From Pseudomonadota bacterium (lineage in GTDB: Bacteria > Pseudomonadota > Gammaproteobacteria > Burkholderiales > Burkholderiaceae_C): 64,000 nucleotides of DNA. This document shows, piece after piece, positions 30,239 to 36,999 of this stretch. The notes below the pieces were generated by a model. It ran no database searches and was not told the origin of the DNA. It was given only the letters and a program-made list of their open reading frames with translations. Made by a program: the position numbers and the translations under genes. Every line of letters begins with the position of its first letter. The stretch's first letter is position 1. The stretch is taken from positions 188,054 to 252,053 of the forward strand of contig JAZKAY010000002.1 of NCBI GenBank assembly GCA_040388905.1, in the 5' to 3' direction.

Positions 30239-31843
30239 TTAAGCCTGGGCTTTCAGGTGAGCAAGATCAGCAAGCCATGCCGACCAGGCCTCGTCTTTCG
30301 CGTCGGGCGGCAGACGCAGCAGCGCGGAAGGGTGCAGGGTCACCAGCACCTTCAGGCCGTCCTCACGCTCAAAAATCTGGCCGCGTGATGCCATGACGGG
30401 GACAGGCCGGCCAAGCAGCGAGCGCGCGGCTGTGGCACCGAGTGCCACCAACAGTTGCGGCTTGACGATGCGGATTTCATCGTCAAGCCAGTGCTGGCAG
30501 GCCGCCGCTTCACGTTGTGTCGGTGTTTTGTGGATGCGGCGTTTGCCGCGCAACTCATACTTGAAATGCTTGACTGCGTTGGAGACAAATACCCCATCGC
30601 GGGCTATGCCAAGCTCTGCCAGTGCGCGGTCCAGCAGCTGGCCGGCAGGGCCGACAAAGGGTTTGCCGCGTACATCCTCATGATCCCCCGGTTGTTCACC
30701 CACAAACATGAGGCGCGCACCGACCGGGCCTTCACCAGCAACTGACTGGGTTGCGCATTCACCTATGGGGCACTCGCGGCAATGTTCGGTGGCCTGACGC
30801 ACGGCAGACAAAGACTTCATGGCCTTGCCATCTGCGGCATGGGTGAACGCGGAAACCGGTGCATGTGTCACATCGGCTATCGGAATGACGGGAATGCGCC
30901 GCAGCGGCACGCTACCGGGCTGCTCGATCATGCGTATGCTGCTCTCGTGCGCACCGGCTACCAGCGTGTGGATCATCTCTGCCTCGGGCAGGTTCTTCCA
31001 GTACTTGCGCGGCATTTCCTTTTGCATCATCTTCACCTTCAGGCGTGCCGGGTTGAAGATGTTGCGGTAGTAGGTGAGCCACAGCTGCTCGCCTGCATCG
31101 GGCATCGGTGCGTCTTCCTTGCGGGCGCCGGGACCGAAGCGCAGGCCGGCCATCACGGCATCTTGTCCCGCACCCTTTGACAGGGGCTCGTCAAGGCCCG
31201 CGTTCAGCCATTCCACGCTGCGTTCAGGTGTGAGGATGGCCCAGCGCATCTGCGCAAAACGGCGTGCAAAAAACGGAGCCACGGCTTCGACGATATGGTG
31301 TTCAGGTTCAAACCAGGCCACGTGCAGCGGCCCGCCTTCGGGGTGGGTGTTGAAGGTTTCATCCTGCACGCTGCGAAAACGCACAAAGGCCTTCATCTTG
31401 TGCATGTCGCGCCGTACGGCATGCGCCATTTGCTGGGCGCGCATCATGTCGGCATCGAGCGGGTCATGGCGCAGGCCGGGCTCATGGGCCAGCCGCCACA
31501 AAATGCGGTAAAGCAGGCCGAAGCGCGCAGGGTCACTGTGCAGGATGGCGGCCTGGCACAGGGTTAAAAACTCGGGCGGCACACTGATGGCGGGGGCAGC
31601 GGCGAACTCCTGTGGGCTGAGGTAGTGAAAGGTGTCCTGCTCGCCTGAAGCCTGCGCGCCGAAAAGATCCGGGGTGGCTTCATCACCACTGCTCCAGACA
31701 ATCTGTTCGGGCAGCATCTGGCGCGCCAGTAATGCGCGTGAAGCACGGCGAAAGCCGTCCAGGTCCGTTGCGCCCTGAAGGGTCACGGGCAACAAGGCCT
31801 GTGGAAACAGGTCGGTCGTCAGCGGGTCATTCATCACGCCCAT
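30239..31843 (-). CDS. DUF4130 domain fused to a UdgX-type family-4-like uracil-DNA glycosylase domain
   Basis: The N-terminus carries DUF4130 motifs (HKMKAFVRF, VAWFEPEHHIVEAVAPFFARRF). The C-terminus carries GEQPG (30686-30700), FVGPAG, the KRRIH loop (30530-30544) and HPSALLR. 10-nt overlap with the upstream rSAM gene. Confidence 0.88.
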   Translation of the reverse strand: MGVMNDPLTTDLFPQALLPVTLQGATDLDGFRRASRALLARQMLPEQIVWSSGDEATPDLFGAQASGEQDTFHYLSPQEFAAAPAISVPPEFLTLCQAAILHSDPARFGLLYRILWRLAHEPGLRHDPLDADMMRAQQMAHAVRRDMHKMKAFVRFRSVQDETFNTHPEGGPLHVAWFEPEHHIVEAVAPFFARRFAQMRWAILTPERSVEWLNAGLDEPLSKGAGQDAVMAGLRFGPGARKEDAPMPDAGEQLWLTYYRNIFNPARLKVKMMQKEMPRKYWKNLPEAEMIHTLVAGAHESSIRMIEQPGSVPLRRIPVIPIADVTHAPVSAFTHAADGKAMKSLSAVRQATEHCRECPIGECATQSVAGEGPVGARLMFVGEQPGDHEDVRGKPFVGPAGQLLDRALAELGIARDGVFVSNAVKHFKYELRGKRRIHKTPTQREAAACQHWLDDEIRIVKPQLLVALGATAARSLLGRPVPVMASRGQIFEREDGLKVLVTLHPSALLRLPPDAKDEAWSAWLADLAHLKAQA

Positions 31844-33318
31844 GGCAAACTCCTTTCTTCACTTACTGGTGCGGATAGTGCGCCCGGCCCCGGCGCCGCC
31901 CATGTAGGCAAAGGGGCCGTCATGCCTGTTGCCACAGTCGTGATCTGCGGGGGAATATACGGAAGCTGCGGCGGCGTAGCAGCTGGCACAGGTGCCCCCT
32001 GTACGGGGGCAGGTTCATCAAAAAGCCCGGGCTGGACGGGGTCACGCAACTGCTCACCCAGGGCCATGCCATCCAGCAGGCCGCCCGGGTGGTGATCAGG
32101 CAGCAGCACAAAAGGCATGACCTTTTTAAGTGGCAGATGAAGGCACAGCAGGTCAGCTGCACGCAGGTGGCGCACCCGGCGGCTCTGCAAGATGCGCTCG
32201 ACTGCCTTCACGCCCATGCCGGGCACCCGAAGCAGCATTTCGCGCGGTGCGTGGTTAAGGTCGACGGGAAAGCGGCCACGATTGGCCAGCGCCCAGGCCA
32301 GCTTGGGGTCATGCAGCAGCGACAGCATGTCGCCGGTGTCTGCAGCGCCGGACGCGGGCGTTGCCGGCACGATCTCATCGTGGCTGAAGCCATAAAAGCG
32401 GATCAGCCAGTCAGCCTGGTACAGGCGATGTTCACGCAGCAGGGGTGCCTGCAGCAGGGGCAGGCGCATCGACGCGTCAGGTATGGGGCTGAACGCCGAG
32501 TAGTAAACGCGCCGCATGCGGAAGGTGCCGTAAAGCGATGCAGAGGTCTGAAGGATGACGCGGTCGCTGGAGTCATCGGCACCCACAATCATCTGGGTGC
32601 TCTGGCCTGCCGGTGCGAAGCGTGGCGCGGCACTGCGTTTGGCCATTCGCGATTTGGGCAAGGAGATGACACTGGTGCGTGCGCCGTCGATGGCCTCGCC
32701 TTTTGCATCGTCGATATGCACCCTGAGCCTGGCCATGGAGCGGCGGATGGCCGGTGCGTTTTTCTCGGGGGCCAGCGCATGAAGTGCGTCTTGCGTGGGC
32801 AACTCGATGTTGATGCTCAGGCGGTCGGCATAACGGCCGGCAGCGGCCAGGAGTTCGGGCGACGCATCGGGAATGGTCTTGAGGTGGATGTAGCCGCGAA
32901 AGTCGTGGTCTTCGCGCAGCCTGCGCGCCACCTCAACCACCTGCTCCATGGTGTAGTCGGGGTTCTGGATGATGCCGCTTGAAAGAAACAACCCCTCTAT
33001 GCAATTGCGGCGGTAGAAGTCGAGCGTCAGTGCAACGACTTCATCGACAGAAAAGCGTGCGCGCGGCACATTGCTGCTGACCCGGTTCACGCAATACAGG
33101 CAGTCATAGGTACAGAAATTGGTAAGCAGGATTTTCAGCAGCGATATGCAGCGCCCGTCAGGTGCATAGCTGTGGCAGATACCCGAACCCTCGGTAGAAC
33201 CAATGCCCTTGCCGCCCACAGAGTTGCGTCTGGAACTGCCGCTTGATGCGCAGGAGGCATCGTATTTGGCGGCGTCAGCCAGAATCGCGAGCTTGCGGTG
33301 GGTAGTTTGTGTGGACAC
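31834..33318 (-). CDS. putative DNA modification/repair radical SAM protein with a C-terminal helix-hairpin-helix
   Basis: CTYDCLYC (CX3CX2C, 33091-33114), N-terminal KLAILADAAKYDASCASSG, and HhH LLRVPGMGVKAVERIL. The only in-frame start near the conserved N-terminus is GTG 33318. Confidence 0.88.
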   Translation of the reverse strand: MSTQTTHRKLAILADAAKYDASCASSGSSRRNSVGGKGIGSTEGSGICHSYAPDGRCISLLKILLTNFCTYDCLYCVNRVSSNVPRARFSVDEVVALTLDFYRRNCIEGLFLSSGIIQNPDYTMEQVVEVARRLREDHDFRGYIHLKTIPDASPELLAAAGRYADRLSINIELPTQDALHALAPEKNAPAIRRSMARLRVHIDDAKGEAIDGARTSVISLPKSRMAKRSAAPRFAPAGQSTQMIVGADDSSDRVILQTSASLYGTFRMRRVYYSAFSPIPDASMRLPLLQAPLLREHRLYQADWLIRFYGFSHDEIVPATPASGAADTGDMLSLLHDPKLAWALANRGRFPVDLNHAPREMLLRVPGMGVKAVERILQSRRVRHLRAADLLCLHLPLKKVMPFVLLPDHHPGGLLDGMALGEQLRDPVQPGLFDEPAPVQGAPVPAATPPQLPYIPPQITTVATGMTAPLPTWAAPGPGALSAPVSEERSLPWA

Positions 33319-33333
33319 TGTATTAATATACAG
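33318..33333. promoter_or_regulatory. LexA (SOS) box 1, CTGTATTAATATACAG
   Basis: Perfect CTGT-N8-ACAG with an AT-only spacer; it overlaps the GTG start of the rSAM gene. Confidence 0.8.
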
Positions 33334-33348
33334 CTTTTTGTCAATTAA

Positions 33349-33364
33349 CTGTATTTATTTACAG
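33349..33364. promoter_or_regulatory. LexA (SOS) box 2, CTGTATTTATTTACAG
   Basis: Perfect CTGT-N8-ACAG with an AT-only spacer, 15 nt from box 1. Confidence 0.8.
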
Positions 33365-33413: not shown

Positions 33414-34421
33414 TCAGGCGCGAACCTTGTGGCGGTTACGGCCCTTGCTGCCTTTGGCCTCCATCAACAGATAGCCCAGCACGGCCACTGCCAGGGGTGC
33501 GATGTAATAAATCACCCGGTAGGCCACCAGCGCAGCCAGAAGTTCGGCCTGGGGCATCTGGTGGGACAGCAAGGCGACAAAAACGGCTTCAAGCACGCCG
33601 AGGCCTGCAGGGATATGCGTGATCACGCCAGCAATCGCAGCCAGCAGAAGCACACCGACCACCATGGAAAATTCAATGCGGTGCTGCAGCAGGATAAAAA
33701 CAATGCCAGACATGGTGAGCCAGTTGGCTGCGCCCATCATCAGCTGAAGGCCGGCAAGCCTGGCTGACGGCAACTCGATGACGTGGCCGCGCACATTGAA
33801 CTGGCGGTGGCCCAGCAGCACGCAGGCGCCCACGTAAGCCACAGCCACACAGACAAGCACCGCACCGCCAAGTCGCAGCAAGGCGGGTTGAATGCCCCAA
33901 CTGGCCGGCAAGGTCGGCGGGACAAGGCTGAACACCAGACCCGCCAGGAACACGTAGCCCATCCAGTTGGTCAGCATGCTGATGGACATGATGCGCGTGA
34001 TGACCCCGGGTTTGAGACCCAGCCTCGAATAAAGCCGGTAACGCATTGCGACGCCGCCCACCAGTGAGCCCAGGTTGAGGTTGAACACATAGCTCACAAA
34101 GGTGGTGGCCATCACGGTGCGCGTTCCGAGCCCGTGACCGGTGTAGTGCCGACCCAGGAGGTCAAAGCTGCTGTAGAGCGTGAAACTGGTGATGGCCAGC
34201 AACACGGCGCCCCAGGCTGCCGACAGCGGATAGTCTTCAAGCGCGGTGAGCACTTCTGCCCATTCGATGCTCCGTGCCTGGGATGCCAGCAACGCCAGGA
34301 CCAGAATCATGAACGCCAGGCCTGCGGCCCGTTTCAGCCACGGCCACCAGGAGCGTCGTGCTGCGGCCGTTGAGGGCTGCTCAGGCGTGTTGGCGGGCAC
34401 GGCGTCCACAGGCTGCGTCAC
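33414..34421 (-). CDS. ybhN: UPF0104/YbhN-like (lysylphosphatidylglycerol-synthase TM-region family) membrane protein
   Basis: 335-aa polytopic protein. ATGA overlap with clsB. Same gene order as the E. coli ybhP-clsB-ybhN operon. Confidence 0.8.
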   Translation of the reverse strand: MTQPVDAVPANTPEQPSTAAARRSWWPWLKRAAGLAFMILVLALLASQARSIEWAEVLTALEDYPLSAAWGAVLLAITSFTLYSSFDLLGRHYTGHGLGTRTVMATTFVSYVFNLNLGSLVGGVAMRYRLYSRLGLKPGVITRIMSISMLTNWMGYVFLAGLVFSLVPPTLPASWGIQPALLRLGGAVLVCVAVAYVGACVLLGHRQFNVRGHVIELPSARLAGLQLMMGAANWLTMSGIVFILLQHRIEFSMVVGVLLLAAIAGVITHIPAGLGVLEAVFVALLSHQMPQAELLAALVAYRVIYYIAPLAVAVLGYLLMEAKGSKGRNRHKVRA

Positions 34422-35725
34422 ACCGGGTCGGCATTGGCCACATTGTCTGCGCCAGCACGTTTTAACCGGGTGGCCTCATCGTCGTGGTCGCTGCGCGTCA
34501 TGGCTGGAATGATGTGTGGGGCATGTGCAGGCAGCCAGCTGGCCCATGACGGGTAACGTCGCAACAGGTGAAAAACAAAAAAGCTCCTGAGCGAAAACCA
34601 CCAGCGCGAGGTTTCGAGTTCATCGGCCCTGATCTGCTTGCAGCTGTTCTGCATGAGATGGTCCAGCCGCCCGGTGAGATGCTCGTTGAAAGCCTTGTCC
34701 CGGATGATGACGTTGGCTTCCAGGTTCAATGAGAGGCTCAGGGGATCGAGGTTGCTGGAACCCACGGTCGCCCATTCGCCATCTGACACTGCCACCTTGC
34801 CATGCAGGGGCCGCTCGCAGTATTCGTAGATGCGCACACCGGCCTTGATCAGGTGGTGGTAGAGCATGCTGGCCGCCGTCTTGACGATGGGCATGTCCGG
34901 CTCGCCCTGCAATATGAGGCGCACATCCACACCGCGGCGCGCTGCCTTGCGCATTTCCTTGATAAGCCTGTAACCCGGGAAGAAGTAGGCGTTGGCAATG
35001 ATGACCCGCTCCCGCGCCGCACGTATGGCGATGCGGTAGTGGCGCTCGATGTCATTGGTGTGCTTGCGGTTGTCGCGCGTCACAAAAATTGCACCGGCAT
35101 CGCCGGCGCTGCCATTTGCGGCAGACGAAGCCAGCCGGTCCTCAGGCTTGCGTTGTGAACGGCCGGGAAAGCGGTCACGCCATGGAACAGCCGCACTGGC
35201 CCCCTGCGCATTGCGCTGGCCCGCCGCAAGCGCACGGTGCACAAAATCATGAATGGTGGAGACGATGGGGCCTTCAATCTCGACTGAATAATCCTGCTTG
35301 GCCTGCGGGCCGAAGTCGGCAAGATGATCTGCCGAGTAATTGATGCCGCCCACAAAAGCGTGCTTGCCGTCAACTACCACGATCTTGCGGTGCATTCGGC
35401 GCAGGACATTGGTGCGCCAGCCAAGCACCGGCGTGCTGGGGTCGAAAACATGAACCCGTACGCCGGCCTGCGTCAGGGTGGAGATGAATTCATGAGAAAG
35501 ATCGGGTGAGCCGAAACCATCAATCGTCACGTCGACCTGGACTCCTCTGGTCGCGGCTTTCAGCAGGGCGCCGTGAAGCTCCTTGCCCACCTTGTCTTCA
35601 AACAGGATGAAGGTTTCAAGGACAACCTCGCGCTCGGCAGCGGCTATGCATTCAAAAACACGTGGAAAAAATTCCTCGCCGTTCTCAAGCAGCTTGAACC
35701 TGTTGCCTTCAACCCATTTACTCAC
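34418..35725 (-). CDS. clsB: cardiolipin synthase ClsB (phospholipase D family, two HKD motifs)
   Basis: HRKIVVVDG...GGIN and HGKVAVSDG...GSSN. AGGAGA lies 5 nt before GTG 35725; the longer ATG 35797 start would overlap ybhP by 52 nt. Confidence 0.88.
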   Translation of the reverse strand: MSKWVEGNRFKLLENGEEFFPRVFECIAAAEREVVLETFILFEDKVGKELHGALLKAATRGVQVDVTIDGFGSPDLSHEFISTLTQAGVRVHVFDPSTPVLGWRTNVLRRMHRKIVVVDGKHAFVGGINYSADHLADFGPQAKQDYSVEIEGPIVSTIHDFVHRALAAGQRNAQGASAAVPWRDRFPGRSQRKPEDRLASSAANGSAGDAGAIFVTRDNRKHTNDIERHYRIAIRAARERVIIANAYFFPGYRLIKEMRKAARRGVDVRLILQGEPDMPIVKTAASMLYHHLIKAGVRIYEYCERPLHGKVAVSDGEWATVGSSNLDPLSLSLNLEANVIIRDKAFNEHLTGRLDHLMQNSCKQIRADELETSRWWFSLRSFFVFHLLRRYPSWASWLPAHAPHIIPAMTRSDHDDEATRLKRAGADNVANADPV

Positions 35726-35745
35726 GGTGTTCTCCTGATACAGGG

Positions 35746-36609
35746 CTAAATTTCTATTTCCGCCGCAAGCGGCGCATGGTCGGACAGATGTGACCACGGC
35801 TTGTTGGGCAGAACCACAGGCGCATGGCCAATGGCGTTACGCACGTAAATCCGGTCCAGCCGCAGCAACGGGAGCCGCGCGGGAAAGGTTCTTGCCGGAT
35901 GGCCGTTGGCCTGTACAAACACCTCGTGCAGGCCGGCACCCTCGGCCAGCTGCTTGCCTGCGCGGTGCCGCCAGTCATTGAAGTCACCTGCCACGATGAG
36001 GGGCGCAGCTGCGGGGACGGTGTCCTCCACCAGCTTGCAGAGTTTTTGCATCTGCTGCATGCGGTGGGCTTCAGTCAGGCTCAGGTGCACGCAAATCGCA
36101 TGGACGTTGAGGGAGCGACCCGGGATCTGCAGCTCACAGTGCAGCAGGCCGCGGCGCTCGGGTCCGCTGATGGACACATCGTGGTTCTCAAAACGCACGA
36201 TGGGGAATTTGGACATGATGGCGTTGCCGTGGTCGCCATGCGTGTAGACCGCATTGCGCCCGTAGGCAAATTGAGGCCAGATGCTGTCCGCCAGGAATTC
36301 GTAATGCGGTGTATCCGGGTAGTTGTCAAACCTGTCCTGATGGGTGGTGTGGCTGCCCGTTACTTCCTGCAGGAACACCACATCTGCGCCCACGGTACGC
36401 ACAGCCTCCCTCAACTCGGGCAGGATGAACTTGCGGTTGAAGAATGTAAAGCCCTTGTGGATGTTGACGGTCAGTACCTTGAGCGAAAAAGTCATGGCTG
36501 CCGTGGCCAGCGCTTCCTGCGTCTGGGCGACGACATCCGCATCCGTCCCGGATGACAGGTCGACAGGTGTTTGTTCAGTGACAGAAATGACAGAAGCGGG
36601 AGTGGACAT
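35746..36609 (-). CDS. ybhP: endonuclease/exonuclease/phosphatase (EEP) family protein, YbhP-like
   Basis: ORF 35746-36648, start moved to ATG 36609. EEP motifs are present (VLTVNIHKG, ADVVFLQEV, GDFNDW, SDHAPL). Confidence 0.85.
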   Translation of the reverse strand: MSTPASVISVTEQTPVDLSSGTDADVVAQTQEALATAAMTFSLKVLTVNIHKGFTFFNRKFILPELREAVRTVGADVVFLQEVTGSHTTHQDRFDNYPDTPHYEFLADSIWPQFAYGRNAVYTHGDHGNAIMSKFPIVRFENHDVSISGPERRGLLHCELQIPGRSLNVHAICVHLSLTEAHRMQQMQKLCKLVEDTVPAAAPLIVAGDFNDWRHRAGKQLAEGAGLHEVFVQANGHPARTFPARLPLLRLDRIYVRNAIGHAPVVLPNKPWSHLSDHAPLAAEIEI

Positions 36610-36999
36610 ATGAATTACGAAACTGCACATGCAGTGAAGCGCAGGCAATGATGGAAACCATCATTAAAACAAACCGTTGCCGAGATTGTTGTGCAAGCGC
36701 CCCGGCCTTCATGTAGGACCGCAAGCTAATTGTGTGTATGAAGGCGTTTGCCACCGGGGTTGCCAGTGTGATCCGGTTTTGTACACCTGCCTGAAACGGG
36801 TTTTGCATGAGTGTCGGGCGTACTGTCCTACGCGCGGGAGCGGGTAGCGCCGATAAGCCGCCACACGACTTGCCGCCTAAATTGAAATCAACCAAACCAG
36901 TTGGTCTGGCTTCTGATGAAGTGCCTTGTTCAGGCGCGGTTCAGATTGTTGGTACTGGAATGACCTGTCAGGTCTTCCGGGTTTCTAAAGGAGTCAAAA

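Follow-up and report, generated by a model that had tools for sequence, protein, structure and literature searches.

A radical-SAM protein and a DUF4130-UdgX fusion protein encoded in a predicted LexA-controlled operon of a Burkholderiales bacterium

UdgX, a uracil-DNA glycosylase (UDG) relative, is a common tool in uracil mapping, base editors and DNA-protein conjugation; to our knowledge all studies of it concern an orphan protein of mycobacteria, and its natural role is still sought. In the enzyme from Mycobacterium smegmatis (MsmUdgX, MSMEG_0265; structures 6ajo, 6ail and 6io9) a histidine of the R-loop prevents turnover, so that the glycosylase becomes trapped covalently on its substrate (PMC4787834, PMC10359453). 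A second line of work, the literature of Erill and Galhardo, deals with a COG1573-COG4277 operon, which is reported to be SOS-regulated in Alphaproteobacteria, Verrucomicrobia and Bacteroidetes (PMC8565304), and in the LexA-less Moraxellaceae the genes for the radical S-adenosylmethionine (rSAM) protein and for TIGR03915 are controlled by DdaA, an activator of the damage response, as part of its regulon (PMC12392091). Here we analyze a stretch of 64,000 nucleotides ("the window") from a Pseudomonadota bacterium of the Burkholderiales (Burkholderiaceae_C; contig JAZKAY010000002.1, positions 188,054 to 252,053), in which a gene for an rSAM protein with a helix-hairpin-helix (HhH) domain lies directly upstream of a gene for a fusion of DUF4130 with a UdgX-type glycosylase domain (Table 1). 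On balance, we lean slightly towards reading the pair as a LexA-repressed two-gene operon for a replication-associated, lesion-processing complex; the evidence is computational throughout and comprises domain and motif alignments, operators, genomic linkage, natural gene fusions, and the conservation of the crosslinking histidine and of a QLxLF motif in the rSAM protein.

The Pfam scan of the fusion protein assigned DUF4130 to residues 106-287 (E=1.9e-39) and UDG to residues 370-525 (E=1.6e-35), while the NCBIfam scan identified, next to TIGR03915 in the N-terminal half, TIGR03914 ("UdgX family uracil-DNA binding protein") in residues 291-528, with a score of 276.7 bits versus the cutoff of 189.95. 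A preliminary description of this DNA, made from the letters alone, had proposed both the N-terminal DUF4130 and the UdgX-type C-terminal domain, and both assignments are borne out; the coordinates it gave for the open reading frame (ORF) and for the motifs GEQPG, KRRIH and HPSALLR were exact on recomputation, and the two stretches it quoted for DUF4130 (HKMKAFVRF and VAWFEPEHHIVEAVAPFFARRF) are both found in the protein. It had also called the upstream gene an HhH-containing radical-SAM gene, in agreement with the TIGR03916 match, the CX3CX2C motif and the ComEA-like HhH domain, and had stated that the linkage is catalogued in TIGRFAMs, which is correct; each of the models TIGR03914, TIGR03915 and TIGR03916 is matched with a score that exceeds its cutoff. 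We regard the domain identities of both genes as practically certain. The fused architecture is abundant, with at least 8000 database proteins at the threshold of E<=1e-10; among the matches listed, both Pfam domains are present in 120 out of 120, many carry the NCBI label "UdgX family uracil-DNA binding protein" already, and the nearest named relatives come from Polaromonas and Comamonadaceae. The fusion protein is a further member of a catalogued, NCBI-named family, and the window is otherwise ordinary.

A phmmer search against all PDB sequences reported the structures of MsmUdgX (6ajo, 6ail and others) for the glycosylase domain, with 183 residues aligned at the E-value given in Table 1 and with GEQPGD, NAVKHFK, KRRIH and HPS(A/S)LLR in register. 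The alignment matches E52, Q53, the R-loop His, motif B and three Cys residues of MsmUdgX, and KRRIH indeed occupies the R-loop position that the preliminary description had claimed for it, with its His on H109. The Cys residues in question are those of the CxxC motif and the Cys of AACQHW; in MsmUdgX the cluster ligands are three Cys and one His. The domain analyzed here differs from MsmUdgX in forming the C-terminal third of a 534-aa DUF4130 fusion encoded in an SOS-boxed operon with an rSAM gene, and in having an R-loop shorter by 2 residues (YE--LRGKRRIH versus FTRAAGGKRRIH). Membership in the canonical family-4 class (UdgA, with GE(A/G)PG, no R-loop and turnover) was considered and rejected, as motif A has Gln and the R-loop insert is present.

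In an alignment of 70 rSAM-linked glycosylase domains with the window domain and MsmUdgX, the R-loop His is invariant (70/70; pattern GK(R/K/…)R(I/L/M)H), GEQPG is present in 69 domains and HPSxxLR nearly always. That the crosslinking His never varies speaks for selection on covalent capture when the domain is encoded in the operon, and on the strength of this alignment the fusion protein probably captures DNA covalently via His438. The glycosylase domain also passes, narrowly, the family-4 model TIGR00758 (133.5 bits versus the cutoff of 125.3), which would be in keeping with an ordinary base excision repair (BER) operon, with a UDG domain that shows the turnover of family-4 enzymes and an rSAM protein in an unrelated or accessory role; the SOS literature does treat the operon as a "putative UDG-based BER system" (PMC8565304). 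However, the best-scoring model for the domain is the UdgX model TIGR03914, and the His residue kept in every linked domain, almost always together with GEQPG, is the one that prevents turnover in MsmUdgX (PMC4787834, PMC10359453), so that we give the ordinary BER operon a small chance.

The window contains only two exact CTGT-N8-ACAG sites, the chance expectation over its whole length being 1.0, and both are found within the 95 bp that precede the rSAM gene, separated by 15 nt. The same two LexA boxes are present in the closest locus from another species (L001), and Comamonadaceae loci keep the proximal box at its position, as CTGTATATTCAT(A/C)CAGTG, with the same layout of a box followed by GTG; five more Comamonadaceae loci exhibit CTGTATATTCATCCAGTG, with one mismatch, at the same position. 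We surveyed 80 rSAM-centred loci from other species (from -100 to +30 of each rSAM start) and found class-specific exact LexA boxes in 62 of them: the alpha-type exact GAAC-N7-GAAC box in 55 loci, mostly fixed at -17 (57 sites versus 0.29 expected from the flanks), and the exact CTGT-N8-ACAG box in 7 beta- or gamma-proteobacterial loci (8 sites versus 0.10 expected). Because the boxes are conserved and SOS or DdaA regulation has been published for related operons, damage-inducibility emerges as a deeply conserved property of the module. The operon of the window is very probably under LexA/SOS control, and its induction in this organism is predicted from the operators. With the published COG4277-COG1573 operons it shares all three models (TIGR03916, TIGR03915 and TIGR03914), the gene order and LexA control, here predicted, whereas it differs from them in its beta-proteobacterial origin, its E. 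coli-type tandem boxes and an rSAM protein with a 61-aa tail that follows the clamp-type motif (see below) and leads into a gene overlap. Within positions 33316-33344, the annotated GTG start of the rSAM gene lies inside the proximal box and the -10-like hexamer, without a Shine-Dalgarno sequence; either the rSAM mRNA lacks a leader or the promoter may have another location.

No recognizable LexA box was found in the surveyed region of the Xanthomonadales-type loci (L012:5948, L020:3254, L022:5972, L030:5948, L045:5960; variant in L013). At a distance of about 30-50 nt before the rSAM start, these loci exhibit the inverted repeat (G)TCTCA-N5-TGAGA(C), which has one other occurrence in 930 kb of flanks, and it looks like a candidate operator of another regulator.

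The rSAM family is large (829 clusters at 50% identity, at E<=1e-30). Its profile, compared with the PDB, identified ComEA as a match for the C-terminal HhH domain (E=1e-6), together with the HhH domains of RuvA and Pol X. The AlphaFold 2 (AF2) model of the rSAM protein has a mean predicted local distance difference test (pLDDT) value of 79 overall, with the core above 90 and the tail below 50, and Foldseek matched it to generic radical-SAM barrels (BioB, HydG, HydE, ThiH, LipA and MiaB; E-values from 3e-7 to 1e-5, template-modelling (TM) scores about 0.3). We also considered spore photoproduct lyase (SPL); like the rSAM family, it belongs to the radical-SAM enzymes for which an action on DNA is predicted. 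This candidate was rejected: the family profile found no SPL at E<=10 in the PDB, none appeared among the top 50 Foldseek matches, and no SPL model was among the NCBIfam matches of the rSAM protein; moreover, SPL has neither the C-terminal HhH domain nor the clamp-type motif of the rSAM family. The label "SplB-like" (PMC3765255) is not supported as family membership. N-terminal to the CX3CX2C motif, the protein has three additional Cys residues (C23, C48 and C57, in KYDASCASSG, GICHS and DGRCISLLK; residues 18-62, window positions 33133-33267), which are kept in 15-18 of 21 diverse family members and which, judging from this conservation, may form an auxiliary (second) cluster or a catalytic site.

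The pentapeptide QL[SD]LF (the Dalrymple consensus) is known to bind Pol II, Pol IV, UmuC, Hda and MutS to the beta sliding clamp. The consensus of diverse rSAM sequences ends with QLxLF, with the variants QLSLF, QLELF, QLDLF and QASLF. Among 79 complete rSAM C-termini from the loci, 38 carry the strict pattern Q[LM]x[LM]x?F and 58 the relaxed pattern QxxLF, versus 0.47 and 3.3, respectively, in shuffled tails used as a control; for representatives at 50% identity the strict motif was counted in 27 of 67, versus 0.36 in shuffles. The motif is nearly always located in the last few residues, and most of the other C-termini end with QLSLL or QLALL. It extends beyond Proteobacteria, as EQLSLF in a Firmicute and QLSLW in Gemmatirosa/Gemmatimonadota, and in Acinetobacter it is found as QLSLGF at the very end of the protein (loci L085, L086 and L087). 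The rSAM proteins are like the known clamp clients in carrying the pentapeptide in a disordered tail and like translesion polymerases in being SOS-regulated, but the carrier in this case is a radical-SAM enzyme and its clamp binding is predicted from sequence. Our literature search found no paper that links radical SAM with a clamp-binding motif. We consider the chance that the rSAM protein is tethered to the clamp via QPGLF/QLxLF to be about even.

The genes are linked far beyond the window, as the preliminary description had expected for related genomes: the order rSAM, DUF4130, UdgX on one strand is found in 70 of the 80 loci, and in all 70 DUF4130 and UDG are in one ORF. The other ten are mostly truncated contigs; four are complete proteobacterial loci with DUF4130 and without UDG. 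The conserved core is, as far as these loci tell, the rSAM protein with DUF4130; in alpha-, beta- and Xanthomonadales-type Proteobacteria UdgX has been added to it by fusion, as an accessory. Natural rSAM-DUF4130 fusions of 729, 666 and 669 aa (cluster representatives P0128, P0138 and P0143) also exist, and a 2026 preprint reported a confident DUF4130:rSAM interface predicted by AlphaFold 3 (bioRxiv 10.64898/2026.08.19.745780). An uninterrupted rSAM-DUF4130-UDG frame was observed in an uncultured betaproteobacterium (L018:5440-8718), in a single metagenome-assembled genome (MAG), and may be an assembly artefact. Mycobacterial UdgX proteins stand alone (~210-233 aa), and upstream of their genes we found neither a Cheo box nor a LexA box.

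The loci with rSAM and DUF4130 and without UdgX bear on two further explanations. They would be expected if the rSAM reaction were the core of the system, for instance if the rSAM protein were a direct-reversal lyase that used radical chemistry, after the manner of SPL, on a replication-blocking pyrimidine lesion of the template, with UdgX serving not as an anchor but in the downstream clean-up of uracils from cytosines that had deaminated within such lesions. SOS control, the HhH domain and the clamp motif suit an enzyme that acts at stalled forks, and Aravind and colleagues grouped the rSAM protein with "SplB-like" photolyases (PMC3765255). However, neither the profile search of the PDB (E<=10) nor the top 50 Foldseek matches revealed an affinity to SPL, and the invariant crosslinking His is left unexplained, as a turnover UDG would suffice; we consider direct reversal improbable. 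The second explanation is that rSAM/DUF4130 resolves the UdgX-DNA crosslink (the His-C1' adduct), which would make the suicide step a repair intermediate. The three domains are tightly linked and fused, the three parts are co-regulated, and the UdgX crosslink is otherwise irreversible, with its removal unexplained (PMC10359453); but the rSAM-DUF4130 pair is common without a nearby UdgX (including the 4 of 80 loci), mycobacteria keep UdgX without the pair, and in the fusion DUF4130 itself becomes part of the adduct. Little probability remains for a resolving role.

Two kinds of additional genes were observed within the module. In Sphingomonas-type loci a hemerythrin (HHE cation-binding) gene is inserted between rSAM and DUF4130-UdgX (L080:7274-7798(+), Pfam E=1e-16), and it is found at the equivalent position in L058, L073 and L070; it may have to do with the protection or repair of the Fe-S clusters that the two partners carry. 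A Fulvimarina MAG (L023:7254-8506) has an opposite-strand HigB/HigA-like toxin-antitoxin pair between the two genes, and also a same-strand gene with the cytidine/deoxycytidylate-deaminase fold, which makes a curious neighbour for a uracil-trapping glycosylase, though in a single case.

The residues of DUF4130 that are universal from Firmicutes to Proteobacteria are H148, R155, F156, R195, W255, R267, W282 and E287. As this set consists mainly of one His, several Arg and several aromatic residues, it suggests a binding adaptor rather than an enzyme, and DUF4130 is a probable non-catalytic adaptor that docks the rSAM protein. The AF2 model of DUF4130 is mediocre (pLDDT 68), and its Foldseek matches to RecJ, NrnA/DHH and the C-Ala domain of AlaRS are not significant (E>0.05, TM ~0.2). 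A phosphoesterase function was considered and rejected, as the "EHH" that resembles DHH is not kept outside Proteobacteria. The disordered N-terminal loop of DUF4130 proteins exhibits a short motif, x(D/G)LF(A/G/D), in 63 of 78 loci; the window copies of this type are at 31661-31669 (residues 59-61) and 31805-31813 (residues 11-13), and in Acinetobacter and Subdoligranulum the motif is QHGLF or QPTLF, i.e. of the full QxxLF clamp type. It may be a second, degenerate clamp- or partner-binding motif.

The same family has been called "a predicted mutagenesis-related enzyme", with ImuB-C contexts, by Aravind and colleagues (PMC3765255), which raises the question whether the module promotes damage-induced mutagenesis by handing a block or an abasic site to error-prone polymerases, or whether the rSAM protein modifies a base. 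The published dependence of UdgX tolerance in E. coli on dinB and umuDC, and a clamp motif of the kind typical of translesion polymerases, point in the same direction. However, the universal residues of DUF4130 form no catalytic-looking constellation, there are no polymerase genes in the window locus, and PADLOC gave no match for either protein, nor was there a modification-system signature; we find a mutagenic or modifying role very improbable.

A possible mechanism that would account for the favoured reading, i.e. the replication-associated complex, can be outlined as follows. DNA damage would lead to LexA cleavage and derepression of the operon. The rSAM protein would bind DNA and would use its C-terminal motif to contact beta clamps that had been left behind at gaps or stalled 3' ends, and DUF4130, docked on the rSAM protein, would hold the glycosylase domain at those sites. 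There the glycosylase could flip out uracil that arose by cytosine deamination in exposed single strands or by incorporation of deoxyuridine monophosphate, cut the glycosidic bond and allow His438 to attack C1', whereupon the covalently attached protein would shield the abasic site from cleavage, following a logic like that of HMCES/YedK. The rSAM protein would carry out 5'-deoxyadenosyl-radical chemistry on DNA at or near the site.

Human HMCES travels with PCNA, to which the clamp motif of the rSAM protein forms a parallel. The likeness to HMCES/YedK is one of functional analogy only, namely a covalent protein adduct on an abasic site: UdgX makes a His-C1' N-glycosidic link after its own excision of uracil, whereas SRAP proteins form a thiazolidine through Cys2 on a pre-existing apurinic/apyrimidinic (AP) site. 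Membership in the SRAP family was rejected, as the Pfam and NCBIfam scans found no SRAP domain and the fold and chemistry are unrelated. HMCES/YedK-type (SRAP) proteins are, for their part, SOS-associated in bacteria (PMC3765255), and the proposals made in the UdgX field itself are AP-site protection and RecA-dependent resolution (PMC10359453).

Several points weigh against the proposed complex. The annotated GTG of the rSAM gene overlaps the -10-like hexamer, which makes the placement of both the start codon and the promoter ambiguous. The window motif QPGLF is without the canonical L at position 2, and it is internal, being followed by the 61-aa tail. The chemistry of the rSAM protein cannot be deduced, because a close relative in structure is lacking. 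The stand-alone M. smegmatis enzyme is the only one for which a covalent complex with uracil-containing DNA, stable to SDS and heat and formed without turnover, has been demonstrated (PMC4787834, PMC10359453), and the production of a crosslink-making suicide enzyme during the SOS response looks costly. In addition, Acinetobacter, a Firmicute and the four complete proteobacterial loci have rSAM and DUF4130 but no UDG, and mycobacterial UdgX genes have no rSAM or DUF4130 gene within 6 kb; since each half occurs alone, the rSAM-DUF4130 and UdgX halves can act independently, and the recruiting role of the fusion would be optional. We suggest an anchoring or recruiting role of the fused module only tentatively, with some doubt. 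The most specific version, a clamp-tethered radical-SAM machine that performs chemistry on template DNA at stalled forks, with the fused UdgX as an HMCES-like device that excises and shields uracils in single strands, we hold to be unlikely as a whole.

Table 1. Coordinates of the features of the rSAM/DUF4130-UdgX operon in the window
Feature	Position	Strand	Details
Distal LexA box, CTGTAAATAAATACAG (- strand reading)	33349..33364	.	exact CTGT-N8-ACAG match
Proximal LexA box, CTGTATATTAATACAG	33318..33333	.	overlaps the -10-like hexamer and the annotated rSAM GTG start
Sigma-70-like promoter, TTGACA-16 nt-TACAGT	33317..33344	-	consensus match only, 10/12; between/inside the LexA boxes
rSAM gene (TIGR03916, rSAM_link_UDG)	31834..33318	-	NCBIfam 531.4 bits versus cutoff 343.5
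CX3CX2C [4Fe-4S]/SAM motif CTYDCLYC, residues 69-76	33091..33114	-	three Cys invariant, 21/21 diverse members
HhH DNA-binding domain, ~residues 347-392	32143..32280	-	ComEA-related 2duy match
Beta-clamp-binding-type pentapeptide QPGLF, rSAM residues 429-433	32020..32034	-	edge of the AF2-disordered, low-pLDDT region
Pro-rich disordered rSAM tail, 61 aa	31837..32019	-	lineage-specific; T-run 32020-32024 = 5 T; pLDDT <50
Shine-Dalgarno AGGAG, 6 nt upstream of the fusion-gene ATG	31850..31854	-	conserved in L001
DUF4130-UdgX fusion gene	30239..31843	-	ORF, 534 aa
TIGR03915/DUF4130 region, residues 25-288	30980..31771	-	NCBIfam TIGR03915 211.7 bits versus cutoff 112.25
Variable linker, residues 289-344 (~55 aa)	30812..30979	-	no alignment consensus; outside both Pfam domains
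UdgX-type family-4-derived glycosylase domain, residues 345-527	30263..30811	-	E=2e-48 to M. smegmatis UdgX structures
Motif A GEQPG, residues 382-386	30686..30700	-	aligned to MsmUdgX 51-55; Gln instead of family-4 Ala/Gly
R-loop KRRIH, residues 434-438	30530..30544	-	His438 on crosslinking H109 of MsmUdgX, column for column (6ajo)
Motif B HPSALLR, residues 504-510	30314..30334	-	aligned to HPSSLLR of MsmUdgX
CxxC (CRECP), two predicted Fe-S ligands	30767..30781	-	aligned to CRGC of MsmUdgX

The rSAM and fusion ORFs overlap by 10 nt (ATGGGCGTGA), which the preliminary description had taken as a sign of translational coupling. The overlap is real, but coupling is not a conserved trait and the arrangement comes down to a one-base difference in a T-run. 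The rSAM protein of L001 ends with …QAALF-TGA (6 T, L001:7285-7300), followed by a spacer of ~160 nt; where the window reads CTT TTT GAT GAA, L001 reads CTT TTT TGA, and one extra T in the window would give LF-TGA-TGA. As the window has one T fewer than L001, the 61-aa tail and the 10-nt overlap are a read-through of the former spacer. A protein from another source, 89% identical (P0122), has the same in-frame tail, which indicates that the change in the T-run is common to the lineage and did not come from an isolated error in sequencing. Judged by this comparison, the overlap is a derived feature rather than a conserved mark of translational coupling.

The neighbouring genes are unrelated housekeeping genes (CorA, a patatin-like protein, a PCC-domain protein, and proteins with PLD-like (PLDc), LPG_synthase_TM and Exo_endo_phos domains). 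Directly upstream of the operon is a three-gene block, 33414-36648(-), which encodes Exo_endo_phos, PLD-like (PLDc_2/PLDc) and LPG_synthase_TM proteins, appears unrelated, and resembles the E. coli ybhP-clsB-ybhN operon. A search of plasmids reported 164 records with the rSAM gene, mostly non-mobilizable chromids, and gave no sign of mobility of the module in these records. Nor did the PADLOC scan of the two proteins lend support to a place among known anti-phage defence systems.

The statement of the preliminary description that the linked genes have no biochemical function assigned agrees with our literature search, which found no functional study of UdgX together with radical SAM, DUF4130 or the TIGR0391x gene set. 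Its proposal of an undescribed pathway stands insofar as the system is functionally uncharacterized in the literature, but NCBI had given the family the name UdgX before, and its members are very numerous. It was silent on the LexA boxes, the clamp-type motif and the dispensability of UdgX to the rSAM-DUF4130 core.

The window itself adds one more family member and one lineage-specific quirk, and the interest lies in the uncharacterized system as a whole, for which the comparison provides three handles: the invariant His, the class-specific SOS operators and the clamp-type motif. A proteobacterial UdgX with the crosslinking His intact, encoded in an SOS-boxed operon together with an adaptor for a DNA-binding rSAM protein, offers a handle on the role of UdgX, and the links among a suicide glycosylase, radical chemistry and, via the apparent clamp motif, the replisome point to specific experiments. 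If the most specific version, the clamp-tethered machine, is true, no radical-SAM enzyme before the rSAM protein would have been a client of the sliding clamp, and UdgX would gain the physiological role that it has lacked since 2015.

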